DNA from: Cyanidioschyzon merolae
Taxonomy: Eukaryota
Direction: 5' to 3' (one strand)
Assembly: GCA_000091205.1 (NCBI GenBank)
Contig: AP006497.2
DNA length: 64,000 bases
Below, piece by piece: positions 32,001 through 58,106 of this stretch. The notes under the pieces were generated by a model. It saw nothing but the letters and a program-made list of their open reading frames with translations, made no database searches and was not told the DNA's origin. A program made the position numbers and the translations under genes. How positions within the stretch are numbered: the stretch's first letter is position 1; every line of letters begins with the position of its first letter.

Positions 32001-32922
32001 GGAAAGTTTGGGAAATGTTGCTTCGCGTGAGCTGGCGCTCGAGTACCGCCTCGATGCGTTCAAGCGTGCGTGCCTGTCGCTACCGGACTCGGTGCTGGCG
32101 CACTGGGCTGCAGCCTCGCTGCCGGATGCGAATTCGCTTTTCATGGTGCGTAAGCGATTTGCGCTGAGTCTGGGAACCTCGTCGTTGCTCCTGTATCTCT
32201 TGGGGGTGGGTTCACGGACACCAATGCATATTGGGATTCATGGAAGCACTGGTGATGTGGTGCATCTGGAGACGCACCCCATTGTGGTGAGTCGCGGTCA
32301 GCAGGTTTACATTGGATTTGATGAAGCGGTTCCGTTCCGATTGACGAGGAATATTCGGAGTCTCATTCGCCTGACGGGAGTTGAGGGCCCCTTTGCTGGC
32401 TCGATTGCGGCGACGTTGAATGTTGTGTATCGTAACTGGGCGCTTCTGCGGGACCTCATGGGCATCGTTTACACAATGGAGCTCTTTGAGAGAACCAGTC
32501 GAGAGACGCTCCGTGTTGAGGATCTGGCGCAGGCGGTGGAAGAGAGCCTTGTGCGGAGCTGGGCCCGAGTCGAGCCGCTGCCGTTCTCGGCAGCACCGCT
32601 GGTTCAGTCACCAACAGCACCAGCGTACGCTGCGGCAACGGCAACGGCAACGGCAAACGGGAAACGCGTACCACACCCAGAGTCCAGCCACGGTGGTGAT
32701 CATGATCATGATCATGATCATGATCACGAGGTGACGCAGACCCTACCACCGCCTGTGAATACAAAAGCGAATGGCCTCGAATTCGCGGAGCGTTGCGGGC
32801 CGGCGACCTCGGTTCGCGACGAGCCCGAGGGTGTCGCTCGCCGCGTCGCTGAACTCATTGCGAACGCTGGTGACCCTGCGCACTTGTCGCAGATGGAGCC
32901 GCTGTGGTATCCATGGTTCTAA
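20083..32922 (+). CDS. TRA1: TRRAP/Tra1-family PIKK pseudokinase (transformation/transcription domain-associated protein), a SAGA/NuA4 scaffold, read as a single 4279-aa ORF
   Basis: This is a 12.8-kb uninterrupted ORF with long HEAT/FAT-type helical repeats. The C-terminal PI3K-like domain lacks the catalytic DRH/DFG signature ('GVGSRTPMHIGIHGSTGDVVHLETHPIVV'), as expected for TRRAP. It ends in the FATC motif '...DPAHLSQMEPLWYPWF*'. Low-complexity inserts are encoded by (ACG)n poly-Thr at ~30219-30248 and ~30818-30843, poly-Ser near 30700, and (GATCAT)n 'HDHDHDHDHDHE' at 32698-32727. Confidence 0.9.
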   Translation: MPSSPTPGELRARLEDPQLTSAERLKLLIELRENIEWFQSTDYQQFLDQLIPCFEQILTTLTRPQLEENAEQALRRTVLEVLSRLPHGEALRPHARRLLQMCQYVLDVDDAEPNAVLALQIMFECHKAYRPQLAAAIPPFLDFVLRIYGVFEWRESDDDSLVAEDTGQQDTYLEPGLEQDGSVEAASRNRPTNVRYAPALRSYRTVRECPPLFMYLSQHYPALIEPRLDELLAVMVRAIEIQVPPTSPARALPIYHDFITAQMKTVSFISFLLRQFESRMLQYAERVPRSVVNLLLNCPDSAVSIRKELLIASRHLLATEFRRGFFLQTDLLLDEKVLIGTSRAAYETLRPLAYSFLAELVHFVRLEVTLPQLSRIIYLFSTNVHDASLSFSMQATSIRLLLNLIEGIMHRREDLNTRGRQLLERIFETIVTKLMEVAEVVPSLLVSTGAADGNDAEDKANGSASSQRASSPIPEPSASTETGAMRPSAVPDEKSQEERSKEVQECRQLVRTLVLGLKTIVWSMSNAFGDSRTRGLTEWECILVSRMLPAARTCFQLYKFGEPAEQKEILDQFAQVFTVMTPRNFQDIIGGRLPQLLAFMVEHQTALSIPQHFLANTSTSRFFADILITFLTEHLEQVVSDDAARASVLLRLFKIMFASVTLFADNEPVLKPHLGTIVRRCLELAATAENPTNALQVLRALFKSLAGGRFELLYREFVPMLYYLLHSLERLMQGPLGESHGLLLIELCLTAPARPSTIFPYLRMHMRPLVRGLDSESELTSLSFRTFEFWIDTLHPEVLERLMQAVQPELERALWRYLSPTSPFSAQAVRILGKLGGLNRKTPRELTPLPWQQPVQAIHAALAWCDRAEPLTVALDEVINAAVDAVLFQASYKVAAYTLLQQVMIAALSSALPPQIKGCPADLLPASVYTMTSAFPRLQVSKTIYTRMLTALFFASGDDALQQTRNAVEFARQLCDYFCRIWMAPVLMEKSTLSALEAAALNAHRTPPENITEWTRFPAAVTIDCFLDALVEAAVLQQKTLDLAAAAKDLNLFALSRCVELFKGDFRGPQRPVVPASDAAEVAAPDSKPLTAAAKGARATEAPSAETAATTAVDAPEHESVDRLRDDHRGADTATCVDEEIAPPLHSVAGASRLTEQLALLVERISHLGYRERWQDRLSCAMLLAGIIEQLPTVVFLDRSYCLYEARLVRVLLQVLKGCAQEGMASRKPAPLVRQTLETLLRRCHEPTSPAWALEDVTSSTIPETDRPSKTNASTPRARCGDVVACLVFDLASEHQAVRETVHASLAQLLRYGVGQNMAEVLALAQTQILRPLLSRRVRTLHYSSQVGHVDCLHYCLENGIIRPFIDQETSLLRTSLVAAMEIFEDPINTRLGEADALMLNRLLENRFVDQETITAIVMLREKVLQFLALCLRQIDQLVHTPNEDIRSLYARLVACFFRGVESRHEAVTRAAKHGLRVFTERSRQLPRGILSSNLRPILQNLSDTNKLSLPYAQTLANVLEVLSNWFNVQLGERLVEHLMNLRAGNPRNPSLLAARIIDLFHLLPPAASRFLDRLIAIVLSFEDEMGPADTGAGHHGLQSRWAGSMSPYRAPLLRYLEKHANLAIGYFLERIRFANYALLFQSLLRAHNAENLRRELANDVSRFIAATFDRGHLLQGLLIVDALESFQAGWIATQRPIYNIALQIWQSAERLERLRREETLPVDQLAESSLLAHVILAYCAVHHGEVDGLYALLSIFSLRTLRDFSFVRRFLTETVAQSYPILYRKKIVERFLERYLDPELSDEVKMYALLYLVIPILRQAFRAGEGLAILDAVTLEVLVKRLFTSTPPASEALTDASADGGGGGDTAPMLASPAESDVLGEALLQLSTLLIEEMPIELVQYRREIIRFGWNYLKRDDSIAKPWAFLNVARFFEAYQAPEKIVLQVFVALLRASQSEQRALVRQALRIVTSILPSRLPATLGKARHAPWIRFTKKILVEESYSALHLAHIWSLVIDKQELFFPGYASLMPHMVNSLPRLVSGSVSAREHRRLALELAGLVVAWQQRLLQVGNNASISSNAPSENGESANASPQTGSAPMASPDVARRLEDLSAVTEVVLQFLIRLPFLVSEPGEHTELFTRARSLLVKAQRVWNHLGSERSPIAQMSCLDKLLDNLAATAAASPTTATGQTSASGTNTAAMPGAPAPAQSHSTTSTISTSTTSAGAASAAHHRTANAGTASATVAPPNNPRDAPASRAREALARSRRLVLEHIVELCELFLDWQGIRWILANSNSLRKLVRPVLAAGMLPLAYRFALLLCKLWLQIGDALRTPESTEDQRANLETVRRDLEQALFEALDIHSDTATLHRSLLLAQTLDPERFTTKHVELIVRILQILMRECLAGIQTNRRMVLIPAPASGDRPQASSSRAQLGTSAGRSSHPPEASVTGSGTGASWPAATGTVTKTGTFSTMTRLAQVAGESAPLGSVADPTASVKETKSAHVASGDEHLPAKGGFEYPGVANPLLVCLEILERLFHGLADYRRSFLQMLWVLLDKCCYSEVLMHVVRVLSQWILMDADDPGAFLQPKEKVHFLVKMTVFERITGAEAHLEAFLPLVLRLLAEPCHALPRDWLPRLERPFMIGLRASNPQLRQAFFQLLDESIIRNPVDRLYYIFEYQSWESLADSLWIRQATALLLALVQVPGSRIELTPDCVRLGCVSYRSGTAADDAMTWEVSRPGADAPTDAADAPRETLTKGAQRSPTDDAYVEAFAGAWTALDGHVDTNAFFEALHELLHHDVSTLQSLWTQLFGAVWSLLSDREERLAMQDALIALLCRDYLLTQCRWRVNVVQIILDAATKCAPQVVIPPQLALHLATHWNAWHIALTYLERRSRSSTLGVARHSDFVFDSLPDGHEFAGILDAKAELYRQLNEYDLYIGLWKRRAMDSRTLLALSLEQQGHLPAAQNLYYDAMTNTESRVAVTEAEAALWEDRWLHCAEELNQWDALTEFSRTVMHPTLLHEALWRLPDWAALKELLMKMPPEDSPRLKILQSFVQLQENRLDQVEPFISSGIRRALEEWQGLPENSSITAFEPSLVLFQQFVELSESASILQELNNALQNPTLLETHAENIRLVLAMWRDRQANHWDRLSDWNRLICWRNHVLTAVVHTLQGLRNRSRVDIPQPLLCMGINETAWNVNCYARAARKQRLSEVCMQALQRMYPYSTMDVQDFFMKTKEQAKAHLLLPSNDDVALRAGLVQLQHTNREYFNTRQKAYLSALEGEFYHRLGEFGAANQAFASSVREYGEHGGVWLRWARYCDQRGRLASAVHCYLQGIRFGSRQAREHLVSVFRIVFALDGASSNAVADSSSLEAMQTEQAAATTTTTTTTTGTADAAAPASPLTTTSAPVAVSSSSAAVSAGASAEVHASQTPSEGLGESRTDACDVCESFVGVLPVWIWVPWSHELISLLSLGRELKLLRHILLRVAGYYPEALFFQLRTFIEERRLLDRPTRMLCPRVDQIQLPVMHPLRSQVASGIPPSSSSSSSTSSAKRNDPTTITAAAAAAATTAGADRSRKPESTTTTTTTTLSAAGNEPSSVAASAGNTAGNSAQKDAENASASGANAASTGATPAPNQPRGSGTSALPSVEQNILSMLQLPLGDTPFEIADTVLAFMVKQHPQLLVELETIARELSLRMKPSAEEQVLHVLNALLHRCWSLPPLMHREVSSGMRSALEEVSKMCFGTGLAADEFHVPPTLADLREAFEAELAPQTAKNFPKTIEPFVALLRKWRGIFSRRVQAMPETLRLERVSRKLVDVRDSQLHVFGQLIQLAQEDGEPLPDLLVHIQSFSVDVQVVHHCGSSARGIAVTGSDGRQYRFLVETALGASLQRSEDRVGHVCRFMNALFQRDSEARRRRLVALVPFSLPLSPQARLVAYQENTLRIQHALQAFCECHGFDMDDTLVAFRDTCALRLESLGNVASRELALEYRLDAFKRACLSLPDSVLAHWAAASLPDANSLFMVRKRFALSLGTSSLLLYLLGVGSRTPMHIGIHGSTGDVVHLETHPIVVSRGQQVYIGFDEAVPFRLTRNIRSLIRLTGVEGPFAGSIAATLNVVYRNWALLRDLMGIVYTMELFERTSRETLRVEDLAQAVEESLVRSWARVEPLPFSAAPLVQSPTAPAYAAATATATANGKRVPHPESSHGGDHDHDHDHDHEVTQTLPPPVNTKANGLEFAERCGPATSVRDEPEGVARRVAELIANAGDPAHLSQMEPLWYPWF
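32698..32727 (+). repeat. (GATCAT)5 hexanucleotide microsatellite inside the TRRAP-like CDS, translated as an His-Asp repeat. Adjacent (GCAACG)3 at ~32635-32656 is translated as ATATATA.
   Basis: Direct reading: 'gatcatgatcatgatcatgatcatgatcac'. It is in frame and lies between the PI3K-like and FATC regions. Confidence 0.9.
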
Positions 32923-38237: not shown

Positions 38238-41042
38238 TCAGTGCACTGACCACAGATCAGACGCTCGTGCGGCGCACTTGCGCAGTGCTGGAGCCAGCTC
38301 CACTCGCCCGCGGTGCTTCAGCATCAATGAGGCAGCGGCACGGGCATCCAAAATCTCGCTGAGTGCATCGTACGCAACCTTCGCAACGGACGAGATGCCT
38401 AAACCGGGTCGTTTGAAGATTGCAGGCAGACTCTCCAGGGCTTGGGTGAGGAAGGGTTCGTCTGCCAGGGCCGACACCGTCGCAAACGCGAGGACGCACT
38501 CGCGGCGAACATCCAGCAATGTGCTGTTCAGGGCCGCCTCCCATAGGCCGCGCAGCAACTTGCTCATTGAAACGGAGAAGAGACGTCTCTGGTCCTGGTC
38601 GTCAGGTCGATCTCGAGCGGCAATGAACAGCAACTCGACACCAAAGCGGCGACTGAAGGCCGCCGCAGCCAGCGCCAACCACGCCTCGGGGCTGCGCAGA
38701 CACCGCAGCAGCGAAGCGTGGACATCGCGTGCTGCTGACGGGGTCTCCATGCACAGAAGCCAACCGTTTCGTAACCAGCTTACAATCAGGGGACTGGATG
38801 CATATTTGGAAGCGAGTTGCTCACAAAATTGGATATGCAAACGGGCCAGCTGCGGTGAAGTTTTTGCATAGCCAAACGCGCCCTCGCGGAGAAAGAAGAT
38901 GGCATCACGAGGCGCACACGATAACAGAAACGGCTGCAGGTGCTCCGCCAGTTCGGAATACCGGTACGGCCTCTCTTCCAACTGGCTCAACTGGCCAGTA
39001 TCTTCGATATGAAACATGTAAATAAACGCAATTGCAGCAGCAACGCGTACAGCTGCTGAACGATCGCCATTCATAGCGATTACGATGCGTTCTCGCAGCG
39101 CTCCGTACACGGGTCGTTCGCGAATCCATTCCATGGCTGCTGGGGTTGCGTTCGCCACCGAGCGGAGAACTTGGAGCCACAGCGTGAGCGCTGCGAGTCG
39201 TCGAACAGATTCAGCGCTCGCCAGAGCGTAGAGCGCCCGTCGCATGGCCGTGTCTGCGAGCGGGCGTCGAGCCTTGTGCGCATTGTCGCCGTTGGGCTGT
39301 GACCTGCGCTGCAGCTGCGCAGAGCCGCTGTCAGAGGGTGCTTCGGTTGTGTGTTCGGCATCCGAGCGCTCGTCCTGTCCGCCCGAGAGAAGATCGTCCA
39401 GCTCGAGTAGGACGTTCGATGATGCTGTATCGCGCGTAGGATCGGCGGAAGCCGCCTCGTCTACTTGGCGTTGCGTAGACAGTAGTGCTGCCTCGTTGGT
39501 AAACGGCCAAGAGGGATCGTTAGCCTCCAGGAACATCCATTTCTCCCAGGGTAACGATCGGGAAAGCATGGCGAGCATTTCCAAAATGCTACGATTACCG
39601 GTGGAGTAGTCACAGAGCTCCTGAACATACGTGAGAATCTCCTTGTCACTGAATTCTTCCGACTCGATATGATCGCCTGTATCGACACTCAGTGACTTGT
39701 TTCGTGCCATTTCAGCTTTGACTCGCGCTGCCAGGAGACGGCGATTCGTCATGGCCATTCGCTCTGACGACAGTTCCTGGGCGGTAGACAGCATGCTGAG
39801 GCGCATTTGCGCCAGCGAGATGTACTGTGCCCCCGAACGCTTCACGTCTGTCGTATTCAACTGATGAATATGAACCAAGCATTGTAGAATCTTCACTAAG
39901 TAGACCTGGGTGGCCGGATCCGCAGCCAGCCTCGCCAGCAACACTCGATTACAGAATGCTCGACGGATCAGACCGCGCATTCGAGTTGGCAGGTTGAACT
40001 CCCCGCTGGTCCGCCGACAAAGCTGGGTATATTGCAACACCAGAGCCACACCATGACGACGCACTGCCGCTGAGCGCGCATTCCAGGCTAGTTCAATAAA
40101 ATGTACGGGAATGGGGTAGGGTTTCTGGGCTAGTTTTTCCAGTCTAAGTGCCTGGAGCTCGCGCCAGCCTAGCAGCAGCGCTTCCAGGAACGCGTCGCTT
40201 TCCCGCGGCGACGAATGCAACTTCAGCGGTCCAGCGGTGGCGGCAGCATCGTCAGTTGCGGTACCACTGGTGTACAGCGCATTCGAGCGTGGACGGAAAT
40301 CAGCTGTCCAACCGCTGTCTGCGAGGGAGCAACGACCCAGTTGGACCTCTTCATCTGTTTCCCAGACGTTCACCAATGCGCTGCATGATGCTATATCCAA
40401 GTCAAGTGTGACAGAGGCTTGCTCAAGTTCTGAGTAGGGAGCCCCGACTACGCTACATGAACCGCGTAGCAAAAGAGTCGCCAGCTGATCAACGATACCC
40501 GATGAAGGCAACGCCACCGCCAGCGCAACGGCAGTCTGCAGTGCACCAACCTCTCTTGCGTGGTGCCGTTTCTCGAACTGCAGAGACCACTTGCGAAAAG
40601 CTTCGGCGATCTCAGAGGTGTGCTGAGAGAGCTGCGTGGCGAGTTCGTTCTCATCGTTGCTTCCAGTGGTCACGACGGCCACAGCTCGAGCGCAACGGCG
40701 TATAAGCAGACGCGCCGCCCCGGCGACCCGCGAGCCATAACCTCCAAAAGTGAGTTGGAGTAGCTGTGGGAAAAGATCGAGGGGTGACTCATCAGTTACA
40801 AGAAGTAAGCGTAGTGCTGCCAGGAGCCGACTTTCGCTGCGAAGCGCCTTGTCGTTCTGCAGCTCCTCTTGGAGGGCGATTCGGCCGATTGTTCGGTACG
40901 AGTCCTCCGAGCGTTTAACACTCTCAGAAACTGCTGTGGTTACCCTTGACTCGCAAACCCTACCGACTCCGTATTTTTCTATACACTGAACGAGGTACTG
41001 TCCTGGGAAAAACCACATGAAACTACACGTGTGCGAAGCCAC
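38238..41042 (-). CDS. Large alpha-helical (HEAT/ARM-like) protein of unknown family
   Basis: The 934-aa ORF is uninterrupted and Leu/Ala-rich throughout, with an acidic/Ser-rich disordered insert near residue 480. I recognise no catalytic motifs. The overlapping + strand ORF 38188-38871 is judged an antisense artefact. Confidence 0.55.
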   Translation of the reverse strand: MASHTCSFMWFFPGQYLVQCIEKYGVGRVCESRVTTAVSESVKRSEDSYRTIGRIALQEELQNDKALRSESRLLAALRLLLVTDESPLDLFPQLLQLTFGGYGSRVAGAARLLIRRCARAVAVVTTGSNDENELATQLSQHTSEIAEAFRKWSLQFEKRHHAREVGALQTAVALAVALPSSGIVDQLATLLLRGSCSVVGAPYSELEQASVTLDLDIASCSALVNVWETDEEVQLGRCSLADSGWTADFRPRSNALYTSGTATDDAAATAGPLKLHSSPRESDAFLEALLLGWRELQALRLEKLAQKPYPIPVHFIELAWNARSAAVRRHGVALVLQYTQLCRRTSGEFNLPTRMRGLIRRAFCNRVLLARLAADPATQVYLVKILQCLVHIHQLNTTDVKRSGAQYISLAQMRLSMLSTAQELSSERMAMTNRRLLAARVKAEMARNKSLSVDTGDHIESEEFSDKEILTYVQELCDYSTGNRSILEMLAMLSRSLPWEKWMFLEANDPSWPFTNEAALLSTQRQVDEAASADPTRDTASSNVLLELDDLLSGGQDERSDAEHTTEAPSDSGSAQLQRRSQPNGDNAHKARRPLADTAMRRALYALASAESVRRLAALTLWLQVLRSVANATPAAMEWIRERPVYGALRERIVIAMNGDRSAAVRVAAAIAFIYMFHIEDTGQLSQLEERPYRYSELAEHLQPFLLSCAPRDAIFFLREGAFGYAKTSPQLARLHIQFCEQLASKYASSPLIVSWLRNGWLLCMETPSAARDVHASLLRCLRSPEAWLALAAAAFSRRFGVELLFIAARDRPDDQDQRRLFSVSMSKLLRGLWEAALNSTLLDVRRECVLAFATVSALADEPFLTQALESLPAIFKRPGLGISSVAKVAYDALSEILDARAAASLMLKHRGRVELAPALRKCAARASDLWSVH

Positions 41043-45384: not shown

Positions 45385-46434
45385 TTACATGTGATGTCGC
45401 TCTTCAACTGGTGGCCGCGACCCTCCATGCGGAAAGCGGACCCCATGCAACTGCCGCCGATGATGACCATTGGGGTCAACTAGGTCAGCACAGAGTCGCT
45501 CGAGTAGCTGAGCGATCCCCGCCATGCTCGGTCGTGCGTCCGGCTGTTCTCGCCAGCACAGATGCATCAGTCGAGGGATACGCAGGTCCACGAAGCGGTG
45601 CGGTATCTGCGGACGCGCCCTCTGCAACGAAACCTTGAGCTGGATCTGTAGAGGGGTACACCCCGGGTACGGTTCGATCTGATGTGTCATCAATTGCCAC
45701 AGTACGATGCCGAAACCGTAAACATCGGCCTTTTCGCTGTAGGCCTCACATCGAATAACCTCAGGTGCACTGTACGCAATCGTTCCACATGGCGTCATCT
45801 TCTCACCGAGCGACGCCATCACCCGGCTGAGACCGAAATCAGAGAGCTTTAATACAAGACCATTATCCCGGTCGGCGAGAAGGAAATTGTCACTCTTCAC
45901 ATCGCGGTGGATGATTGGTGGTTTCTGGGCGTGTAGAAATGCAAGAGCACGTGCAGCGTCTCTCGCAAACGCCAGGTCTTGCTGCAGGTGCGGTTCCGCC
46001 TTCCGAATCCAGTTTGTGAGCGTTCCTCGGTTCAAGTACTCGCAGATGAAATATGGTGGAAGAACGGATACGTCAGAAACGCCCAGAAAACGGACAATAT
46101 TTGGATGGTGCAACGTCGAGAGCAGTCGCACTTCCTTCTGAAACTGCTTTAGCAGGTGCTCGCGTTCAGCCTTCGATTTACCAGAAACGTGGAGTACCTT
46201 AACCGCAACGATATGAACGTCTTGCCAGCGAGCTTTAAAGACCTCACCAAAGCTCCCCTTCCCGATCCTCGCCAAAACCTTGAGCTCGGCTGGCTTCACG
46301 ACGATGAGCGGAGGCGGGTGCCCAGCTGCGGGTTCAGTCGCAGTTTCCCGCCCTGTCTTCCAAAAGAACATATAATGGTGCGACAAAAACCAGAGACTAT
46401 CTGCAGTGTTTGCTAGGAAACAAAAAACAAGCAA
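45385..46434 (-). CDS. Ser/Thr (TKL-like, dual-specificity-type) protein kinase with an N-terminal hydrophobic segment
   Basis: The 349-aa ORF has 'IGKGSFGEVFKARW...VAVKVL' (Gly-loop and VAVK Lys), 'HRDVKSDNFLL' (catalytic loop), 'DFGLS' and 'YSAPEV'. The 'CWREQPDARPS' end is typical of TKL/Tyr-like kinases. The N-terminus 'MLVFCFLANTADSLWFLSHHYMFFW' is hydrophobic. Confidence 0.85.
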   Translation of the reverse strand: MLVFCFLANTADSLWFLSHHYMFFWKTGRETATEPAAGHPPPLIVVKPAELKVLARIGKGSFGEVFKARWQDVHIVAVKVLHVSGKSKAEREHLLKQFQKEVRLLSTLHHPNIVRFLGVSDVSVLPPYFICEYLNRGTLTNWIRKAEPHLQQDLAFARDAARALAFLHAQKPPIIHRDVKSDNFLLADRDNGLVLKLSDFGLSRVMASLGEKMTPCGTIAYSAPEVIRCEAYSEKADVYGFGIVLWQLMTHQIEPYPGCTPLQIQLKVSLQRARPQIPHRFVDLRIPRLMHLCWREQPDARPSMAGIAQLLERLCADLVDPNGHHRRQLHGVRFPHGGSRPPVEERHHM

Positions 46435-48447: not shown

Positions 48448-51400
48448 TCAGTCGGCAGCAAGGATTTGGGTGCCACTGCCTGAACGCCTCCGTCGTTCGG
48501 TTTCGCGAGAGCGACTCTTACTTGAGGTCACTGTTAAGCCGACAATCTCGCGGAGGACATGTCTGGCGTGTCCAATGTCGGGTAGGAAGAACTCGGCGCT
48601 GGTGGGCGCGGAGCTCCCCGCAGTCACCACCCCGGATCCGACGCTACACGTCCACGCGATACGATCGCCAGTGTCGCGTCGATAACCGCGAAGCAGCGTG
48701 TACACTTCGTTATCATCCCGTGTATCAGCGGCCAAGCAGAAAACGAGATGCCACGAGGATCCGAGATCCTGCAGAACTCGGGCTACGGCAGCAGCCCGGC
48801 TACCGCCGCTGGCTCGAAAGTCAATGCGCTTGGCGCTGCCACCCTGGTGAATGACCTCCATCGGCATGGTGGTACAGTAGTCCACGAGATGGGCTTGCAA
48901 TTCACGGGCCTGCCAGACTCCGTAATCGGGATCAGCATCGCGATAGTGCCAGGATATAGAGCGCTCTTTGATCTCGAGAAAGCTTCCCGGTGTTCGTTCG
49001 GTGTAATAGTTCAAAATAGGCAAGATTTCGTGTTTCCATTTGAGCTCGGTCTCGCTCGCATTTGCTTCGGTTGCACTCGTGGTGACTTTCCATTCAGTTA
49101 GCCGCCCAGGGTGTCGATAAAACTGTCCATCCTCTGCGATCAGGCCCATGGATAGGAGCGTGGCGTTCGCAGAGCGCTCTCCACCGGCCCGGACTTCCTC
49201 AAACCAGCTCATGAGATGGCTGCGATCCCTAGAGCTCATCAAATAGACTCGATTATTTCCGTCCGAACAGAGACGCATCAGCAAGCGCCAGAGCATTTGC
49301 GATGGCGCCGCCAGCTCAGGGACACTTTGTTGTTCTTGGATGCTTCCCTCGTAACCGAGAATGAACAAGCGATGCTGAGCACGAGCCACTTGTTGCATGA
49401 ACTCCGGAACAGTCAGCAGCTGCTGGCTATCTGGCTGCTGTTGTTGCTGCTGCGTGCTGCGCAGCTGCTGCAACTCGGAGACAAACGACTGCGCCCAGTA
49501 CGACGCTGTGTGCGTGGTAACATACCGATAGAGCTTCCAGTGCTTCATTTCACGCTCGCGATCACTCATGGTGAGTGCCTCATGCATCGCGGCTGCAAGC
49601 TCCTCGATATTCCATGGATTCACCCGAATCGCACCGGAAAGCGACTGTGCCGAGCCGGCAAACTCGCTCAGAATCAGAACACCACATTTCTCTCTCTGGC
49701 ACATAACATACTCATAGGAAACTAAGTTCATGCCGTCGCGAATCGACGTGATAACGGCAACATCAGCGACGTGATACAGGGCGCACAGCTCCTCAAAAGG
49801 AATGCTCTGATTGATAAACATGATGGGTGCATACTCCACGGAGCCGAACCTGCCGTTAATCCGTCCCACAAGCTCGTTCGTGTACGCGATCAGCTTGCGG
49901 TACTCTTCGACCTCAATTCGAGACGGGACAGCGATCTGGGCCAGTACCACTTTCTCGTGCCATTCGGGGTACTTTTTGAGCAGGGTTTCAAAAGCGAGCA
50001 GCTTGTGCGGTACCCCCTTAATGTAGTCCAAGCGATCAACCCCGATGAGAATTTTTTGCCCTCGAAATCGATTGCGCAGTTCCTCGATCCGGGCTTTGAC
50101 CAGCGCCAGCTCCATCGTTCGCAAAAACAGGTTCGGATCAATGCCGATGGGGAAAATGCCGACCCGCGCAAAATGACCGTGGAAGGCGACGCCCTTGTGT
50201 GACGACTCCAGTCCGAGGATCCTCGTACATACTGAGAGGAAATGGCGCGCATAGTCGAAGGTGTGAAAGCCAATGAGATCCGCCGCAAGGACGCCCTCGA
50301 GAATCTCCCGCCGGACAGGTAGAATCCGGTAGACCTCGCTCGAGGGAAACGGCGTGTGCAAAAAGAAACCAATTCGAGTTGAGTGACGCAGTTTTCGTCG
50401 GAGCAGTGCTGGGAGCAGCATCAAGTGATAGTCCTGAACCCAGACTGAGTCGCCCCGTCGATACACCGACATGATTGCTTCGGCAAAGCGCTGGTTGGCT
50501 GTCGTGTACGCGGCCCAATACTTGTAATCGAACTTGCGCTCTCCGTCCTGGGAAACAACCTGCAATGGAACGTAGTGGAATAGAGGCCACAGCACATCGT
50601 TGCAGAATCCATTATAGTACAGTTCGTGAAGCTCTGCGCTCAAAAATACAGGCACCAGACCGTACCTATGAAGCAGCTCCGTGGATACCTGCGTCTCGTC
50701 TGCGGGATCGACTTCGCCTCCGGGCCAACCAACCCAAATGAATGGGAGCTCACGCGGGTCCAGCGCACCCTCCAGTGCCGATACGAGGCCCCCAGAGCTC
50801 ATGGTATAGTCGTACTGCCCATCATTGCGACGCTTCATCGTAATCGGTAAGCGATTCGACACGATGATCAACTTCGGCTTACTCTCATCCTCTGATTGCA
50901 TTTCAGAGTGCATATCGGTGCGTGTGTTTCGCGGTAACGAAGCCGCACGTCGACTAACGCGCCAGGAACCAGTGTGCTCCGTGGAGGCGCGAGCCTGGGT
51001 GCCGGCTGCGTCCAGTGCCGCTGCCGTGCCGTCGCTTCCTCCAAACGCCTGGATAGCACTCGATTCGGTATCTGCTGGACTACCAGAGGCTTGCGAAAAC
51101 TGACTGGGGCCCTCAGCGATCGTTTCCCTGACGGTCTGTGTTGCTGCCGATGCGGGAAGCGATATCGTTCTGCTCAACGCAGCGGAGGCGGCGTCATCGG
51201 AACCGGTGACACCAGTCTGTTGCAGCTCACCAGCGACGGGTGTACTCTCCGCTGGTGTCCCCAAATTCAGCGGCGTTCGGTTTGTGCCACTCGGTGGATT
51301 CCCCGACTCCCGAAGGTCCATGAGCTGGAACTGGAGCTCCTGAATGCGCGACAGAAGCTCATCTTCGGTTACATGATTCGGGGATACTGACGCTCCAGCT

Positions 51401-51906
51401 AAAGGCGAGCTCTGTTCAACAGCATGCGATCGTGCATGCGATCTTCTGTACGCAGCGCCAGTCGATCGGTAGGGGTTTTCACCCCCGATCTGCCGGCCGT
51501 ACAGCGCGGCCGTGACGTCTGTGTAACTGCCCGCTCCCGACTGACCTGCACTAGAGTCTTCAAGTTCAAAGTCTGTCGAAGAGAAATCAACCACTTCTTC
51601 AACATCTTCAACGGAATCGGAACTTTGATTGTTGGCATTCATCGGCCCAGGAAAGGTCACGAGGAAAAACTCCAACGAAATCCTCTGCACTTGTTCCGCA
51701 GAAGCGAAACTGCTGCAATTTGAACGAGAAGACGCCCCGTCACGCAGTCTGATTTTCGTACAGAAGCTCCAGTTTAGCACTTGAACCGCCAATACTATAC
51801 AGAGCTGGTAGAGAGCCCGCGCTTTTTTAACAGTACGCGCGCTCCAGGTTGCAACGACCAGGGCAAGCACCAATAGCCTCACGAGTACGAAGCGATACAA
51901 TCGCAT
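48448..51906 (-). CDS. Trehalose-6-phosphate synthase (GT20) fused to a trehalose-phosphatase-like HAD domain, with a ~340-aa N-terminal extension
   Basis: The 1152-aa ORF has the GT20 core 'LIIVSNRLPI...GGLVSALEG...WVGWPG...NDVLWPLFHY...IGFFLHTPFPSSEVYR...GVDRLDYIKG'. The C-terminal TPP-like domain has HAD motif I replaced, with 'LFILGYEGSI' (~49343-49372) where 'LDYDGT' is expected, and GDD replaced by 'ADTRDD'. The N-terminus has two hydrophobic segments ('LVRLLVLALVVATW', 'LCIVLAVQVL') followed by ~280 aa of S/T/A-rich disorder. An in-frame QQQQQQ is encoded near 49430-49470. Confidence 0.9.
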   Translation of the reverse strand: MRLYRFVLVRLLVLALVVATWSARTVKKARALYQLCIVLAVQVLNWSFCTKIRLRDGASSRSNCSSFASAEQVQRISLEFFLVTFPGPMNANNQSSDSVEDVEEVVDFSSTDFELEDSSAGQSGAGSYTDVTAALYGRQIGGENPYRSTGAAYRRSHARSHAVEQSSPLAGASVSPNHVTEDELLSRIQELQFQLMDLRESGNPPSGTNRTPLNLGTPAESTPVAGELQQTGVTGSDDAASAALSRTISLPASAATQTVRETIAEGPSQFSQASGSPADTESSAIQAFGGSDGTAAALDAAGTQARASTEHTGSWRVSRRAASLPRNTRTDMHSEMQSEDESKPKLIIVSNRLPITMKRRNDGQYDYTMSSGGLVSALEGALDPRELPFIWVGWPGGEVDPADETQVSTELLHRYGLVPVFLSAELHELYYNGFCNDVLWPLFHYVPLQVVSQDGERKFDYKYWAAYTTANQRFAEAIMSVYRRGDSVWVQDYHLMLLPALLRRKLRHSTRIGFFLHTPFPSSEVYRILPVRREILEGVLAADLIGFHTFDYARHFLSVCTRILGLESSHKGVAFHGHFARVGIFPIGIDPNLFLRTMELALVKARIEELRNRFRGQKILIGVDRLDYIKGVPHKLLAFETLLKKYPEWHEKVVLAQIAVPSRIEVEEYRKLIAYTNELVGRINGRFGSVEYAPIMFINQSIPFEELCALYHVADVAVITSIRDGMNLVSYEYVMCQREKCGVLILSEFAGSAQSLSGAIRVNPWNIEELAAAMHEALTMSDREREMKHWKLYRYVTTHTASYWAQSFVSELQQLRSTQQQQQQPDSQQLLTVPEFMQQVARAQHRLFILGYEGSIQEQQSVPELAAPSQMLWRLLMRLCSDGNNRVYLMSSRDRSHLMSWFEEVRAGGERSANATLLSMGLIAEDGQFYRHPGRLTEWKVTTSATEANASETELKWKHEILPILNYYTERTPGSFLEIKERSISWHYRDADPDYGVWQARELQAHLVDYCTTMPMEVIHQGGSAKRIDFRASGGSRAAAVARVLQDLGSSWHLVFCLAADTRDDNEVYTLLRGYRRDTGDRIAWTCSVGSGVVTAGSSAPTSAEFFLPDIGHARHVLREIVGLTVTSSKSRSRETERRRRSGSGTQILAAD

Positions 51907-51974: not shown

Positions 51975-51991
51975 TGTGTGTGTGTGTGTGT
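51975..51991 (+). repeat. (TG)8 microsatellite
   Basis: Direct reading: 'ctgtgtgtgtgtgtgtgtag', about 70 bp upstream of the TPS start codon on the opposite strand. Confidence 0.9.
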
Positions 51992-53674: not shown

Positions 53675-54649
53675 ATGAAGGCGGCAGCACAAAACTTCAC
53701 GCCGAACGGTGCGAACGGGGGCCGCACCTCGCTCTTCCGCGCTGTCCTTGCAATGGCCTACTACATCACAGCAGCTTCGGGCTTGACAATATTGAACAAA
53801 AGTATTTTTTCCAGTTTTGGCTTCCGGTACCCGCTGGTGCTTGTTGAAGCACAACTCTTGTGTACACTCGGGCTCTTCGAGTTGTTGACGCGGTGTCATG
53901 CGCTCCAGCGGCCGACCTGGAGCTTCGCCAGCGCATCGAAAATGCTGCCCCTTGTTGGCTCTTACCTCGTCATGCTATTGAGCGGCATGTTTGGACTCCA
54001 GAACACGACGCTGGTCATCTATAATACGTTACGGCGTACCACTGTGGCTTTTGTTCTCGTCCTCGAGTACTTTATTTTGAACGTGTTCCCGACCCTGCCA
54101 ACGCTCTGCTGCGTCCTCGCTATGACGTTAGGTGCCACGTGGGCTGGTCTCGTGGACAGCACCTTCGATCTATACGGATACGTGATGATTTTCGTTGCGA
54201 ATGTCTCTTCAGCGTTATATGTTGTGTATGCGCGACAAGTCAAACAAACATCAGCATGGAGCAACACCGACATCCTGTACTTGAATAGCTTATTCTCCGC
54301 ACCGCTGGTGTTAGGGTTTGTGCTCTGGCGTGGTGAGTTGACACAACTCTATCGTATGGGAATCGGAGCATATCCATGGAGTTTTTATTTGATTTTTGCA
54401 TTGGCCTGTTTGATGGGCTTTATTATCAACCATTCAATCTTCTACAACACGAACACAAATTCGCCACTGACGCAGACCATCTCTGCGCAGGTCAAAGATG
54501 TGATTTTGCTCGTTGCAAGTGCACCGTTCGATGGAACCAAGGCCATCAGCGAGAATTTGGTAGGTATCTTGATCAGCCTGCTTGGCAGTGTAGCGTACTC
54601 GATCATCAAATACAGGGAGCACAGGGCGCTAACAGAGGAGCGTCACTAG
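53675..54649 (+). CDS. Nucleotide-sugar / triose-phosphate transporter family (SLC35, TPT/DMT superfamily) membrane protein
   Basis: The 324-aa ORF has about 8-10 hydrophobic helices. The N-terminal 'YYITAASGLTILNKSIFSSFGFRYPLVLVEAQLL' and C-terminal 'LLVASAPFDGTKAISENLVGILISLLGSVAYS' are typical of SLC35 family members. Length and architecture fit a Golgi/ER nucleotide-sugar transporter. Confidence 0.7.
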   Translation: MKAAAQNFTPNGANGGRTSLFRAVLAMAYYITAASGLTILNKSIFSSFGFRYPLVLVEAQLLCTLGLFELLTRCHALQRPTWSFASASKMLPLVGSYLVMLLSGMFGLQNTTLVIYNTLRRTTVAFVLVLEYFILNVFPTLPTLCCVLAMTLGATWAGLVDSTFDLYGYVMIFVANVSSALYVVYARQVKQTSAWSNTDILYLNSLFSAPLVLGFVLWRGELTQLYRMGIGAYPWSFYLIFALACLMGFIINHSIFYNTNTNSPLTQTISAQVKDVILLVASAPFDGTKAISENLVGILISLLGSVAYSIIKYREHRALTEERH

Positions 54650-55427
54650 CGCTCCCACGTTCCATGCACCTCATTGAAGTAGCCTGCGGAGATGATTTTC
54701 CTCGAAGAACGTCTCCAACGAGAGCCATTGGCTACGCGCGAGAAACCGGATGCGCTTCCAGACGCCAGTGTCGCTGCCAGGCAACCTCGCTTTGTTTTGC
54801 TGATCGCGAATGGCTACTCCGTCTACGCTGTGGACCGCTGAGATACATGTTGTGGTATTCTCAGGGGGGCGTGTCGCGTGGAAGCGGACGCAAGTTTAGA
54901 CGAGTACGTAGAGGCATGGCAGTCGTGACTGATAAGAGACGCTGACGTCCCAGCTGCGTACCGGCAATATCGACAGGCCATGAACGCCAACTGCACGGAT
55001 GCAACAAAGCGAGTCGGCTTTCCGGTGCACGCGTTTATAGCTGCCGACGGATGATGGACACTGCTGTTGTATCGCTCCTGGAGCAGAGCGCCCGCTTCTT
55101 GCGACAGTCTCCAAAATGCTGGGGATCCGCGTGGTTGCATGCCCACAAGCTCGACTGATGGGCGTGCGTTGCTCCGACGTTTGCACGCTTGCCACGTGCA
55201 TGAAACTGGTGGAACCTGAAGCGCGCTGGTCCGTTCACCATCGAACTCGAAGCAGTGCAGCGTGTCGAGTCGAGTGCATTTCAGAGCGTGTATCAAGGCG
55301 CGTCGCATGAGGCATCTGTCACGTAATTTGGCAAGAGAACCGGGGTATTCACGATGAGCGCTGTCTCGCTTCATGGAAACCGATGTTCATCGATCATTCC
55401 GCGTACGAGCTAGGATTTCGCGGCCCA

Positions 55428-58106
55428 TCAGCTGAACAGGACCCCAAACGCCCAGGTGGCAGTCTCTCGAGTCGACTTTCGACGGCCACTGATACATAGT
55501 TTTTCTACAATGGGGCGCAGCCAACCGAGCTCACGGAGTGCGGACACCGCGGCCGGGCCAAAGGTCTGTCCGATATCACCCATGACACCCACAACTGCGC
55601 GCAGCATATCCTCATCGTCCACAACCTCTTGGCTGACCTGCTCGCAGAACCGGATGACCCACTCAACTTGCTGGCGATCGATAAGAAGCCCGGCTTTCTG
55701 AGCAGCATTCAATCCGTTGATAATCCCCGTGTAAGCGTCCAGAATACACTGCCGCATTTCCAGGATCCAATCATTGGTCTCATCGTCAAGCACGGGTGTT
55801 TGCAACGTCGACCAGGCTGCGTGTTGCAAAGCGGCAATGCAGGGGTCCAGGTAAGGCTCGAAAGCTCCCTCCAGGGCCAGCGCAATATCCCCAATACAAC
55901 AGAGGATTGGAGGCTTCACTGTCCGGTTCAGGAGAGTGTTCTCGAGCGCCGCAAGCAGCACTTGGACGGTTTCAGCTGCGAAGGGCTCGAAGCGCTTCTC
56001 CAGCGCCCTACAGATATCGCTTATTGTGCCAATTGCAACCGCGCAAACATGGTAGGCCTCCCAATTGCGCACACTTGCGAGGACAAATGGCATAGCGCGA
56101 GCTGCATACGACGCAAATGCGTGTTCCACTGCGGAGGCAATCGAACCAAGGGCCATCAAGGCATCCTCGTGCACTGCAACGGAACGATTTCGATTGAGCA
56201 CTTGCAGAATCATCTCCACTAGGCGAGAGGTAGTACCCTCCAGTAGCGGTGGATCAAGATGCTGGACGAATACCTGAATGAGTCCGCATAAGAGGCCTTG
56301 AATTTCTATCTGGAACGCTGGCTGATTTGCAGACGCTGCAAGCATCGCATCAGATTCCTGTAACGCCCTTTCCAGGCTGTGCATGGTGAGCGGTAAATAC
56401 TCTCGGGCTAGTGACCTGGCATTTTCAGGTGAGCTCTGCTGCACCAAAGCAATCAGCGTTTCGTACGACGATGCCAACAAGTTCCATTCATCCGCATCAT
56501 CGCGTTGCGCCGTCTGCCACAAGGCGTTCGCCAGCGTCAACGTAGCCGCCGAAATACTTGCCAGCGCTTCCGCCGACTCGTGTTGTGTTTCTATCAAGGA
56601 GGTGAGGGCGTAACAGGCACTTCGTGCAACCCGAGGAGTATCCGCAAGCGCTCTCATCAGTGCGGTCAGTGCCGCTTCTATGACATTCGCATTGAGGTGC
56701 GTTACCAGATGGGCAATCAAGCGACCGAGGCTCCATGCTGCTGTATCGCGGACTGCCTCGTTCTGCGCGGTTTCCAGCATCCGCAGGGGAAGCGCGAAAA
56801 CTTCCAGTGTGGTCTGCTCGTCGTTGGCGCTCGTAAACGTCACTGCGATGGAGCCGACAGCGACCAGTGCCGCCTCGTGGGATCGCCAATCCCGTTGAAC
56901 ATCCAGATGCTCTCGAATAAATGGCACAGCAGCCTCCAGTGTTGCTTTCGGAGCGACCTGCGCAAACAGAGAAACGCATGCACTTGCAGCTAGGACTCGA
57001 TTCCAGTTCTCGCCTTCGACGTCCTCGTCCTCGTCGCGCCGGATCAGACACTGAGTGAGGAGCGGAATTAGCGCTGGCGCTGCCTGCTCCACGATCCCCA
57101 AGTACGCTGTCTCTAGCGTGCCATTCTGTAAGAGTTGATGCTCTTCCAGACGCTTGATCTCGACATCGGCCACGGATGACCAGAACTCTATCGCTTGCAC
57201 CGCAACATCCTCCTGATCGTACTGAATCGCATGACATGTGAGCTGAAAAGCCATCTCGATAAAAGTGAGTGGTGGATTAGAGGGGCTCGGACAGGCAAGT
57301 TTCTCATAATACTGGCTCGCTATACCAACCAGGCACTCGTAGGCGCTGCGTCGGAGCTCGGCATCGGCAGGCTCAGCCGCCGCCATCATCACGGTGCGCA
57401 TGATCATATCGCGCTCGACTTCGTTCTCCATATTCTGTGCGACGAAAGCCAAGGCGTTGAAGAGCGCAGTCGTTGCAGCCCGTCGAACGAGCGTATTCTC
57501 CTTCGGAACGGGCGGCTCGGTGGGCGTGGTCTCATGATCGCCGCGCATGCCTTGAACCAGCGCCGTTAGGATCAGGTTCGACTGGTGGGCGATAACCCCC
57601 GCGACGGACGGTTCCTCGCAAATGTAGCCCAGTGCCTCGACACAGCCGTGTTTCAGAGCATCGCTAGAACCAGCCTGGGTCAGCGGTTGGACCAGCTGCT
57701 CGATCAGTTGGGGCCACTGGCCGTGCGGAAGCTCCACCACCGCAACCTGAGCGAGCGCTTGCGCAGCCTGTCGTCGGACTGAGGCTCCCCCCTGTACAGT
57801 ACCCAGCGCCTGAATAAGCACACAGTGTACTTGCTTTCGCTCTGCAGCACCAATCTGAGCAAGCCAGCGCTCTGTAGCGCCCTCTTTTGCGGAGCCAAAA
57901 CGCCCACTGAGCGAGTTTTTGAGCAGGATACCCGCCAACTGTCGCGCTTGAATCGGCGCCGTCCCATCGGCCAACAGCCCAACTAGATCAAGCACGAATC
58001 GTACGTATTCATCGTTTTCCAGACGAAATAACTCTGCTTCGGCGGCCTCTCGAGCTTGATGATCTGGTGATTGCGCCTGTAACAGCAGAGGCGCGAGCTG
58101 ACTCAT
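55428..58106 (-). CDS. KPNB1: Importin subunit beta-1 (karyopherin beta / Kap95)
   Basis: The 892-aa ORF is all HEAT repeats. The N-terminal importin-N region 'LLQAQSPDHQAREAAEAELFRLENDEY..FVLDLVGLLADGTAPIQARQLAGILLKNSL' parallels human KPNB1 '[60 protein letters not shown]'. The length also matches. Confidence 0.9.
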   Translation of the reverse strand: MSQLAPLLLQAQSPDHQAREAAEAELFRLENDEYVRFVLDLVGLLADGTAPIQARQLAGILLKNSLSGRFGSAKEGATERWLAQIGAAERKQVHCVLIQALGTVQGGASVRRQAAQALAQVAVVELPHGQWPQLIEQLVQPLTQAGSSDALKHGCVEALGYICEEPSVAGVIAHQSNLILTALVQGMRGDHETTPTEPPVPKENTLVRRAATTALFNALAFVAQNMENEVERDMIMRTVMMAAAEPADAELRRSAYECLVGIASQYYEKLACPSPSNPPLTFIEMAFQLTCHAIQYDQEDVAVQAIEFWSSVADVEIKRLEEHQLLQNGTLETAYLGIVEQAAPALIPLLTQCLIRRDEDEDVEGENWNRVLAASACVSLFAQVAPKATLEAAVPFIREHLDVQRDWRSHEAALVAVGSIAVTFTSANDEQTTLEVFALPLRMLETAQNEAVRDTAAWSLGRLIAHLVTHLNANVIEAALTALMRALADTPRVARSACYALTSLIETQHESAEALASISAATLTLANALWQTAQRDDADEWNLLASSYETLIALVQQSSPENARSLAREYLPLTMHSLERALQESDAMLAASANQPAFQIEIQGLLCGLIQVFVQHLDPPLLEGTTSRLVEMILQVLNRNRSVAVHEDALMALGSIASAVEHAFASYAARAMPFVLASVRNWEAYHVCAVAIGTISDICRALEKRFEPFAAETVQVLLAALENTLLNRTVKPPILCCIGDIALALEGAFEPYLDPCIAALQHAAWSTLQTPVLDDETNDWILEMRQCILDAYTGIINGLNAAQKAGLLIDRQQVEWVIRFCEQVSQEVVDDEDMLRAVVGVMGDIGQTFGPAAVSALRELGWLRPIVEKLCISGRRKSTRETATWAFGVLFS

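Follow-up and report, generated by a model that had tools for sequence, protein, structure and literature searches.

This locus raises two questions, namely which halves of a protein joining a trehalose-6-phosphate synthase (TPS) domain to a trehalose-6-phosphate phosphatase (TPP)-like domain are likely to be active, and where that protein begins. The window, a stretch of 64 000 nucleotides from Cyanidioschyzon merolae contig AP006497.2 (GenBank assembly GCA_000091205.1), includes an ORF of 1152 aa with an ATG start at 48448..51906 on the minus strand. C. merolae is nearly intronless and can be modified by homologous recombination. [quoted passage not shown] Four TPS genes, including XP_005537475.1, and one TPP have been listed for C. 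merolae (PMC8703398 supplement). [quoted passage not shown]

We consider it very probable that BAM81439.1 is an ordinary red-algal class I TPS with a dead TPP-like half, a start at Met89, an 88-codon leader and an N-terminal extension of about 255 aa. Little of this is new, as the gene is annotated and already included in published phylogenies, and a dead phosphatase is a textbook trait of class I TPS. The first-pass annotation had recognised a fusion with a plausible synthase and a phosphatase domain lacking its catalytic aspartates. That observation is confirmed and both functional predictions stand, but the classes of protein with which the fusion was compared need to be changed.

The synthase half matches the Pfam Glyco_transf_20 profile (PF00982) with an E value of 1.6e-186 and 621 bits (cut-off 32.5), and its score of 589.2 against the NCBIfam OtsA equivalog TIGR02400 exceeds the cut-off of 564.85. 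Active-site residues were compared with those of an OtsA reference sequence that is 100 % identical to 2wtx. The Glc6P-binding residues of OtsA (R9, Y76, W85 and R300) correspond to R352, Y431, W440 and R663, and the UDP-Glc/catalytic residues (G21, G22, D130, H154, R262, K267, D361 and E369) to G372, G373, D492, H517, R625, K630, D724 and E732. The query keeps every residue checked, each of which is shared by at least 116 of the 120 homologues, and both Trp of the OtsA WFGW motif are present (W391 and W394). Because the active site is fully conserved, the GT20 domain plausibly has trehalose-6-phosphate synthase activity, as had been proposed from its conserved signature. The AlphaFold pLDDT is mostly >85 over residues 345-815, and the modelled GT-B fold is superimposable on solved Tps1/OtsA structures. 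Foldseek comparison with fungal Tps1 structures gave target-normalised TM-scores of 0.87-0.91 (5HVL, 0.91; 6JBR, 0.87), at 49-55 % identity, and the domain is 52 % identical to the Arabidopsis TPS1 cluster. The closest solved GT20 structures, those of Tps1 from Candida albicans, Aspergillus fumigatus and Cryptococcus neoformans (5HUT, 5HVM, 8FHW), have the same active-site residues. However, in the PDB the chains of fungal Tps1 consist of GT20 only (446-469 residues in Candida/Aspergillus) and lack a TPP-like domain.

The C-terminal half matches Pfam Trehalose_PPase (PF02358, E 9.3e-35) and scores 53.6 against the T6PP equivalog TIGR00685, below the cut-off of 68.05. At motif I, FMFDYDGTL of the Tps2 phosphatase domains (A. 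fumigatus, C. neoformans and C. albicans) aligns with FILGYEGSI, placing Gly851 at the Asp nucleophile and Glu853 at the acid/base Asp two residues on (GYEGS, residues 851-855). This register is confirmed by PDB 5DX9, the nucleophile mutant D24N (PMC11997177), whose N falls precisely in the column of the query's G, and the replacement of DYDGT by GYEGS described in the first-pass annotation is thus correct. The motif II Ser (Ser891 in MSSRD) is kept and does not vary in alignment A2. Motif III has Arg in place of the Lys (GGSRA versus VNKG or VDKS in active domains). At motif IV, the reported change from GDD to ADT agrees with the family MAFFT alignment, but pairwise HMMER gives AAD, one residue apart. 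One Asp of the acidic pair is kept, in a register uncertain by one residue, and the sequence AGDT of Cyanidiococcus in the family alignment favours ADT. With Asp replaced by Gly851, the acid/base Asp by Glu853 and the motif III Lys by Arg, an aspartyl-phosphate intermediate would be impossible, and the domain should be catalytically dead, as originally suggested.

Judged from the alignments, the loss of phosphatase motif I is ancient in the red-algal clade. The nucleophile is missing from all 54 homologues in this clade, the ones nearest to the query, with xYE at motif I in 53 and NHE in Porphyridium, and DYDGTL, the Lys and GDG are retained in most fungal and stramenopile TPS-TPP fusions. The TPP-like domain is 71 % identical to that of Cyanidiococcus and 39 % identical to that of Chondrus, AlphaFold predicts its fold with confidence, and it is therefore under purifying selection. 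Its closest solved relatives are the phosphatase domains of fungal Tps2 (5DXL, 5DX9 and 5DXI; E 1e-28 to 4e-22), and the cap-domain signature YYTERTPGSFLE.K..S.SWHYRDADP.YG.WQA.EL is common to the query and these active phosphatases. As the cap signature is retained, the domain is most likely a non-catalytic module. We take it to be the remnant of a HAD-fold trehalose-6-phosphate phosphatase, most likely with a structural, regulatory or ligand-binding role, as proposed for AtTPS1. Phosphate removal would then pass to another protein. A search for a stand-alone TPP elsewhere in the genome had been recommended, and the literature lists a single one for C. merolae, XP_005538088.1 (PMC8703398 supplement).

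With intact TPS residues and a full-length TPP-like domain that lacks the first phosphatase motif, BAM81439.1 has, at the sequence level, the pattern of a plant-type class I TPS, which published descriptions set apart from class II. In plants, class I TPS (AtTPS1) combine a working synthase with phosphatase boxes that are inactive and with an N-terminal extension, whereas those of class II keep the phosphatase boxes and have lost the UDP-Glc/Glc6P-binding residues (PMC3995065; PMC4203130; PMC9569751). Both classes have been reported in red algae (PMC2935371), and a red-algal cluster has been placed with plant class I TPS (PMC6642608). However, the query differs from the plant class I proteins in several respects. 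Motif I is LGYEGSI rather than LGFNATL (AtTPS1 type) or LGYNATL (Auxenochlorella), with E instead of N at the Asp+2 position, and the extension is about 255 aa rather than about 90 aa. The plant proteins carry the autoinhibitory motif RxERLLRERELR and the query instead carries a helix that is kept among red algae, for which hhalign detected no homology to the plant autoinhibitory (L27) motif in 60 plant TPS1 N-termini (probability 0.3 %). A role in Tre6P signalling is, unlike in plants, not established in red algae.

The first-pass annotation had likened the protein to class-II-like TPS and to yeast Tsl1/Tps3, which in the yeast complex are regulatory subunits without a synthetic role (PMC11997177). 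These proteins do resemble the query in joining a TPS to a TPP domain, at least one of the two being silent, and a catalytically silent regulatory subunit of this kind would be in keeping with the dead phosphatase-like domain and with a weak match (E 0.056) to the C. albicans trehalose synthase regulatory protein 5hus. However, class II proteins are substituted in the synthase active site, which is fully intact here, and retain the phosphatase boxes, of which the query has lost box 1; the query thus follows the class I pattern. Its TPP-like domain also matches the phosphatase domains of active Tps2 (E 1e-28) much better than it matches 5hus, and we regard a silent subunit as extremely unlikely. 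Fungal Tps2 itself, an active specific phosphatase with an inactive synthase-like domain (PMC11997177), has DxD, Lys and GDD and is the reverse of the query, as its inactive half is the synthase. It is also highly improbable that the protein is bifunctional, with residual phosphatase activity supplied by a non-canonical nucleophile such as Glu853. The score of 707.7 for the bifunctional TPS/TPP model PRK14501 (NCBIfam; cut-off 634) and the retention of the motif II Ser and one motif IV acidic residue favour this, but that score comes mainly from the GT20 half. The Gly at the nucleophile site, the Lys to Arg change and the TIGR00685 score below cut-off argue against it, and plant class I proteins that share these losses show no significant TPP activity (PMC6642608; PMC9569751).

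For the synthase half, the alternative to TPS is that the GT20 domain is a floridoside/isofloridoside phosphate synthase, using UDP-galactose and glycerol-3-phosphate. Trehalose is seldom detected in red algae (PMC6642608, PMC13306765). The TPS domain of Pyropia haitanensis PhTPS1, which clusters close to plant class I and retains every UDP-Glc and Glc6P site, formed floridoside and isofloridoside from these substrates in vitro, and trehalose-6-phosphate synthase functionality was reported for none of the four PhTPS proteins (PMC6642608). The query and PhTPS1 are probably members of one clade, because P0015, from the clade of the query, matches PhTPS1 in length (1153 aa versus the 1154 reported) and in the position of the SNR-Arg (136). 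For two TPS-like genes of Galdieria, (iso)floridoside-phosphate synthase/phosphatase function is described as proven (Pade et al. 2015, as cited in PMC6642608). Galdieria Gasu_10960 and Gasu_26940 and Pyropia PhTPS1/3/4 are red-algal TPS-TPP fusions like the query. However, the reported PhTPS1 activities were very low (0.26-0.5 umol per h per mg; PMC6642608), and the Galdieria enzymes are, on the same cited account, active in both halves, whereas the phosphatase of the query has no nucleophile. The four Glc6P residues and all UDP-sugar residues of the query are identical to those of OtsA, and the OtsA equivalog cut-off is exceeded. Moreover, it is a separate C. merolae protein, the CBM20-TPS-TPP fusion BAM80147.1, that groups with the isofloridoside enzyme clade, which is marked by an N-terminal CBM20 and GT20-site substitutions (PMC6642608). 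The query has neither, as a Pfam domain search found no CBM20 and the acceptor residues are unchanged. We therefore consider this alternative improbable and retain the TPS assignment.

The region upstream of the GT20 core had been described as about 340 aa with two hydrophobic helices and a long S/T-rich linker, representing either a membrane tether or a translated 5' leader. The long ORF does have 344 aa here, and the S/T-rich linker is present (S 15 %, A 13 % and T 9 % in residues 89-343). However, a Kyte-Doolittle value of 1.6 is exceeded in a single segment, with its centre at residues 10-17, and the second 'helix' is weaker. Translation of strain 10D from the first ATG (51906) would give a 1152-aa isoform with a membrane anchor or a signal/transit function in residues 1-50. 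Consistent with this, the ORF is open from that ATG in 10D and in four metagenome variants (P0121, P0124, P0131 and P0132), no frame contains a further ATG between this one and that of codon 89, and residues 2-21 and 26-49 are predicted to be helical, with the 10-17 segment strongly hydrophobic. Against this, codon 33 is changed from TAC to TAA in three environmental contigs (L001-L003) from three samples, representing near-identical strains in which the rest of the gene is intact, and the substitutions L16Q and W21R fall inside the putative helix. Variant sites are 12-fold denser in codons 1-88 (8 in 264 nt) than in the remaining gene (8 in 3192 nt; odds ratio 12.4, p=7.8e-6). In Cyanidiococcus, the orthologue (P0002) begins at the position equivalent to Met89, has an in-frame stop 47 codons upstream and has no hydrophobic stretch. 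No counterpart of codons 1-88 was found in Cyanidiococcus, in an ENA cyanidialean protein (P0004) or in 49 other red-algal N-extensions, none of which reached KD19 > 1.6.

Translation from the first ATG is thus unlikely, though a strain-specific membrane-tethered isoform might be made in 10D. The TAA variants, the variant density and the absence of the segment from orthologues indicate that codons 1-88 are probably an untranslated 5' leader wrongly included in the gene model, and that translation most likely begins at Met89. The leader is favoured over the tether for these codons, but the start does not lie as far downstream as the Met just upstream of KLIIVSNRLP, the position that the first-pass annotation had considered would overturn its reading. 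The BAM81439.1 / XP_005537475.1 model probably has 88 spurious N-terminal residues, by which localisation predictions would be misled.

On conservation and modelling, residues 89-344 are a genuine extension, predicted to be mostly disordered apart from one helix. The extension is 45 % identical to that of Cyanidiococcus over 234 aligned positions, and pLDDT is <50 for residues 45-176 and 203-338. AlphaFold places the helix at residues 181-201 (pLDDT ~80, flanks <50), and its motif T/S-E-x-E-I/L-L-x-x-I-Q/H-x-L-x-x-x-L-x-x-L/V-R, or a close variant, is found in nearly all aligned red-algal homologues and in EukProt SAG11 (P0119). This helix is probably a regulatory or interaction element. At the opposite end, the C-terminal tails include ERRRRSSSG, ERRRRSNSG and ERRRRLPS, with KPRRRS in Galdieria, and the basic tail kept in Cyanidiales may be a phospho-regulatory site. 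Coordinates are listed in Table 1.

Table 1. Features of the class I-type TPS gene, in window coordinates
Feature	Position	Strand	Basis
Most likely true CDS, class I-type TPS, Met89-Asp1152, 1064 aa	48451..51642	-	Cyanidiococcus P0002 start; upstream in-frame stop in L001-L003
Stop codon TGA	48448-48450	-	End of ORF
Codons 1-88 of long ORF/BAM81439.1, hydrophobic 'anchor', probably untranslated 5' leader	51643..51906	-	TAA variants, variant density, absent in orthologues
Met89, most likely start codon	51640-51642	-	Orthologue start and upstream stop
Genuine N-terminal extension, residues 89-344	50875..51642	-	Cyanidiococcus identity, pLDDT, composition
Conserved amphipathic helix TEDELLSRIQELQFQLMDLRE, residues 180-200	51307..51369	-	Red-algal motif and AlphaFold
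Predicted GT20 trehalose-6-phosphate synthase domain, residues 345-813	49468..50874	-	Pfam PF00982, TIGR02400, structure match, active-site residues
TPP-like HAD-fold domain without catalytic residues, residues 850-1084	48655..49359	-	Pfam PF02358, TIGR00685, motif survey
Degenerate HAD motif I LGYEGSI (for xDYDGTL), residues 850-856	49339..49359	-	Alignments
HAD motif III region IDFRASGGSRA, Lys to Arg, residues 1028-1038	48793..48825	-	Motif survey
Degenerate HAD motif IV CLAADTRDDNE (for CLGDDxTDED), residues 1057-1067	48706..48738	-	Alignments
C-terminal basic Ser-containing tail RSRETERRRRSGSG, residues 1132-1145	48472..48513	-	Kept in Cyanidiales

Because the dead TPP-like domain retains the cap (sugar-binding) signature, it is a candidate Tre6P/trehalose sensor for control of the neighbouring synthase, and the 180-200 helix would then serve in autoinhibition or oligomerisation; we regard this proposal as doubtful but conceivable. 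For studies of Tre6P signalling beyond green plants, this helix, common to red-algal class I TPS, offers a candidate regulatory element. If the sensor proposal is true, the hardware of class I Tre6P signalling would be older than the split between the red and green lineages.

The ORF in question encodes 1152 aa, and its product is 100 % identical to BAM81439.1/XP_005537475.1 of C. merolae 10D, annotated as an alpha,alpha-trehalose-phosphate synthase (TPS). The order of accessions and the chromosome length of 902,900 bp make CMO053C the probable locus. Coordinates are listed in the table, with residues numbered from the first ATG of the ORF. The window has a G+C content of 50–60 %, long intron-free ORFs and a eukaryotic character. 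A domain search of the window found the TPS gene flanked by ordinary housekeeping genes, namely those for Tra1/TRRAP, a class II aminoacyl-tRNA synthetase, Nup85, a protein kinase (TKL-type), a TPT-family transporter (divergent from TPS), importin-beta and a ThiF/E1-like enzyme. C. merolae shares with Cyanidiococcus yangmingshanensis the arrangement importin-beta, TPT, TPS, kinase. Three long ORFs had no Pfam match at E ≤ 1e-4.

Features of the window, with the TPS gene and its parts listed before its surroundings
Feature	Position (nt)	Strand	Residues	Details
TPS ORF	48448-51906	-	1-1152	intact frame from first ATG
Codons 1-88	51643-51906	-	1-88	carry hydrophobic stretch
Met89 ATG	51640-51642	-	89	most likely translation start
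Glyco_transf_20 (GT20)		-	345-813	Pfam, E 1.6e-186
Interdomain linker	about 49438-49455	-	818-823	QQQQQQ within Gln-rich STQQQQQQPDSQQ, GT20 to TPP-like domain
Trehalose_PPase (TPP-like)		-	850-1084	Pfam, E 9.3e-35
C-terminal tail	48472-48513	-	1132-1145	RSRETERRRRSGSG, Arg-rich motif with Ser
(AC)8 microsatellite	51976-51991	minus-strand reading		about 70 nt upstream of first ATG
Tra1/TRRAP-type ORF	20083-32922	+	4279 aa	intron-free pseudokinase scaffold; Tra1 central and ring regions, FAT, PI3/PI4-kinase
ORF without Pfam match	38238-41042	-	934 aa	
ORF without Pfam match	15624-17204	-	526 aa	
ORF without Pfam match	4876-6360	-	494 aa	
Compared block	53675-58106			compared with Cyanidiococcus contig L005
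Compared block	45385-46434			compared with Cyanidiococcus contig L005

The GT20 domain scores 589.2 against TIGR02400 (OtsA equivalog, cut-off 564.85) and aligns over its full length with fungal Tps1 proteins of known structure (49–55 % identity). The active site was checked against the E. coli OtsA sequence (474/474 identical to PDB 2wtx). OtsA R9, G21, G22, Y76, W85, D130, H154, R262, K267, R300, D361 and E369 correspond to R352, G372, G373, Y431, W440, D492, H517, R625, K630, R663, D724 and E732, all kept, as are both Trp of the WFGW motif (W391 and W394). AlphaFold models this region with confidence, and the model superposes on fungal Tps1 structures with TM-scores of 0.87–0.91. Synthase activity, which the first-pass annotation had thought plausible, is by these sequence and model comparisons very plausible.

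The other half has lost phosphatase motifs. When aligned to three solved fungal Tps2 phosphatase domains, 'FILGYEGSI' falls on 'FMFDYDGTL', in agreement with the earlier reading of GYEGS for DYDGT in motif I. C. neoformans 5DX9 is a D24N nucleophile mutant (PMC11997177), and its Asn sits exactly at the column of the query Gly, which fixes the register. The nucleophile Asp of active TPPs is thus replaced by Gly851, and the Asp at +2 by Glu853; the Ser/Thr of motif II is kept (Ser891), and the Lys of motif III is Arg. For GDD in motif IV, the family alignment gives ADT, as first read, and the pairwise alignment gives AAD, with one Asp left. The score against TIGR00685 (T6PP equivalog) is 53.6, under the cut-off of 68.05. 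The motif states and this score together confirm the loss.

In plants, class I TPSs have an active TPS, a complete TPP domain with inactive phosphatase boxes and an N-terminal autoinhibitory extension, whereas class II TPSs have lost the TPS substrate-binding residues and conserve the phosphatase boxes (PMC4203130, PMC3995065, PMC9569751). Both classes are reported from red algae (PMC2935371), and in PMC6642608 a cluster of red-algal sequences falls with plant class I. The C. merolae protein, with its active-type synthase site, inactive phosphatase boxes and N-terminal extension, shows the class I pattern, as judged from motifs and published definitions. The earlier comparison to class II and to Tsl1/Tps3 was therefore the wrong way round.

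Among the best 120 database homologues, the DxD is missing in 54/54 members of the red-algal clade, which include Cyanidiococcus, Galdieria, Chondrus, Gracilariopsis, Hildenbrandia, Compsopogon, Porphyridium and many metagenome sequences. Motif I is x-Y-E in 53 of these and N-H-E in Porphyridium (P0053), and in most members the motif III Lys is Arg or another residue and the first motif IV Asp is Ser or another residue. Among the lower-ranked fungal and stramenopile TPS-TPP fusions, most retain DYDGTL, Lys and GDG/GDD. Five homologues of the red-algal clade (P0020, P0026, P0028, P0034 and P0038) have LDYEGTL in motif I, with the nucleophile Asp present, Glu at +2 and Arg for Lys, which would make them an intermediate state or else a reversion. 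Auxenochlorella 'TPS1' has LGYNATL, and in plant TPS1 proteins motif I is of the LGFNATL type, for example in AtTPS1, whose sequence shares 98 % identity with P0135, the representative of the Arabidopsis cluster. Judged from these motifs, the loss is clade-wide and ancient. The TPP-like domain is 71 % identical to that of Cyanidiococcus and 39 % to that of Chondrus, is predicted by AlphaFold to fold confidently, and has the cap signature YYTERTPGSFLE.K..S.SWHYRDADP.YG.WQA.EL in common with active fungal phosphatases, all of which indicates that selection maintains it for a non-catalytic role. Cyanidiococcus lacks the Gln-rich interdomain run. The C-terminal motif is kept in Cyanidiococcus (ERRRRSSSG) and homologue P0004 (ERRRRLPS), is reduced in Galdieria (KPRRRS), and looks like a candidate basophilic-kinase or 14-3-3-type site.

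Yu et al. 2021 list four C. merolae TPS genes, XP_005537475.1 among them, and one stand-alone TPP, XP_005538088.1 (PMC8703398 supplement), so the question of a separate TPP raised in the first-pass annotation is answered at the level of the literature. Neither the paralogues nor this TPP are in the 64-kb window. The only match in a literature search for CMO053C was a 2026 proteomics study, in which the CMO053C and CMP219C TPS proteins were detected, both about 2-fold up after TOR inhibition (PMC13306765). The main rival to a trehalose-phosphate synthase is that the GT20 domain makes (iso)floridoside phosphate, as reported for some red-algal TPS-like proteins. Pyropia PhTPS1, probably of the same clade, has weak (iso)floridoside activity in vitro; however, the Glc6P site of the C. 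merolae protein is intact, its OtsA equivalog score is over the cut-off, and the proven Galdieria enzymes have an active phosphatase half, which it lacks. We consider this rival quite improbable.

Two hydrophobic helices had been proposed upstream of the GT20 core. The first stands as a hydrophobic stretch, with a Kyte-Doolittle (KD, 19-residue) maximum of 2.02 centred on residues 10–17; as this is the sole segment above 1.6, a second transmembrane helix was rejected. Codons 1-88 most likely lie outside the functional protein. Codon 33 is TAA instead of TAC in three near-identical gene copies on metagenome contigs from three JGI samples, with everything from Met89 on intact. Across four strain contigs, 8 variant sites fall in codons 1-88 and 8 in the other 1064 codons (odds ratio 12.4, Fisher p = 7.8e-6); of the former, 1 is nonsense, 2 are synonymous and 5 are missense, among them L16Q and W21R in the putative helix. 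The Cyanidiococcus orthologue begins at the position equivalent to Met89, with no hydrophobic segment upstream and an in-frame stop 47 codons before its start, and 0/49 other N-extensions in the red-algal clade reach KD 1.6. On these observations, translation most likely begins at Met89, and the GenBank model probably reaches too far upstream. Strain 10D has an open frame upstream, with no ATG in any frame between the first ATG and Met89, so a long isoform, though improbable, may be made there. Variants of 1140 aa start at the edge of a contig (gene at position 2 of L004) and are therefore uninformative on the start.

Of the earlier alternatives, a membrane tether or a translated 5' leader, the second is favoured for codons 1-88; residues 89-344 are a genuine extension, 45 % identical to Cyanidiococcus. 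The extension is rich in Ser, Ala and Thr and predicted by AlphaFold to be disordered (pLDDT below 50), except for a helix at 181-201 (pLDDT about 80). Within the extension, this helix (TEDELLSRIQELQFQLMDLRE) alone is conserved across Rhodophyta, and it is also present in EukProt protein P0119. From the 3-4 spacing of its hydrophobic residues, it may be an amphipathic interaction helix. Homology to the plant TPS1 autoinhibitory motif was rejected (hhalign probability 0.3 %, 13 red-algal segments against 60 plant N-termini), so a regulatory role would be only an analogy.

The four strain contigs (L001-L004; JGI metagenomes 3300050354, 3300050356, 3300050386 and 3300050389) are about 99.5 % identical to 10D at this locus and have the same neighbouring genes; in L001 and L002 the microsatellite is one repeat unit longer. 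As the gene is already annotated and its architecture is that of a known class I TPS, the new points are confined to the probable mis-annotation of the start codon and the conserved helix within the extension, and the four contigs provide natural-variation data for the C. merolae genome.
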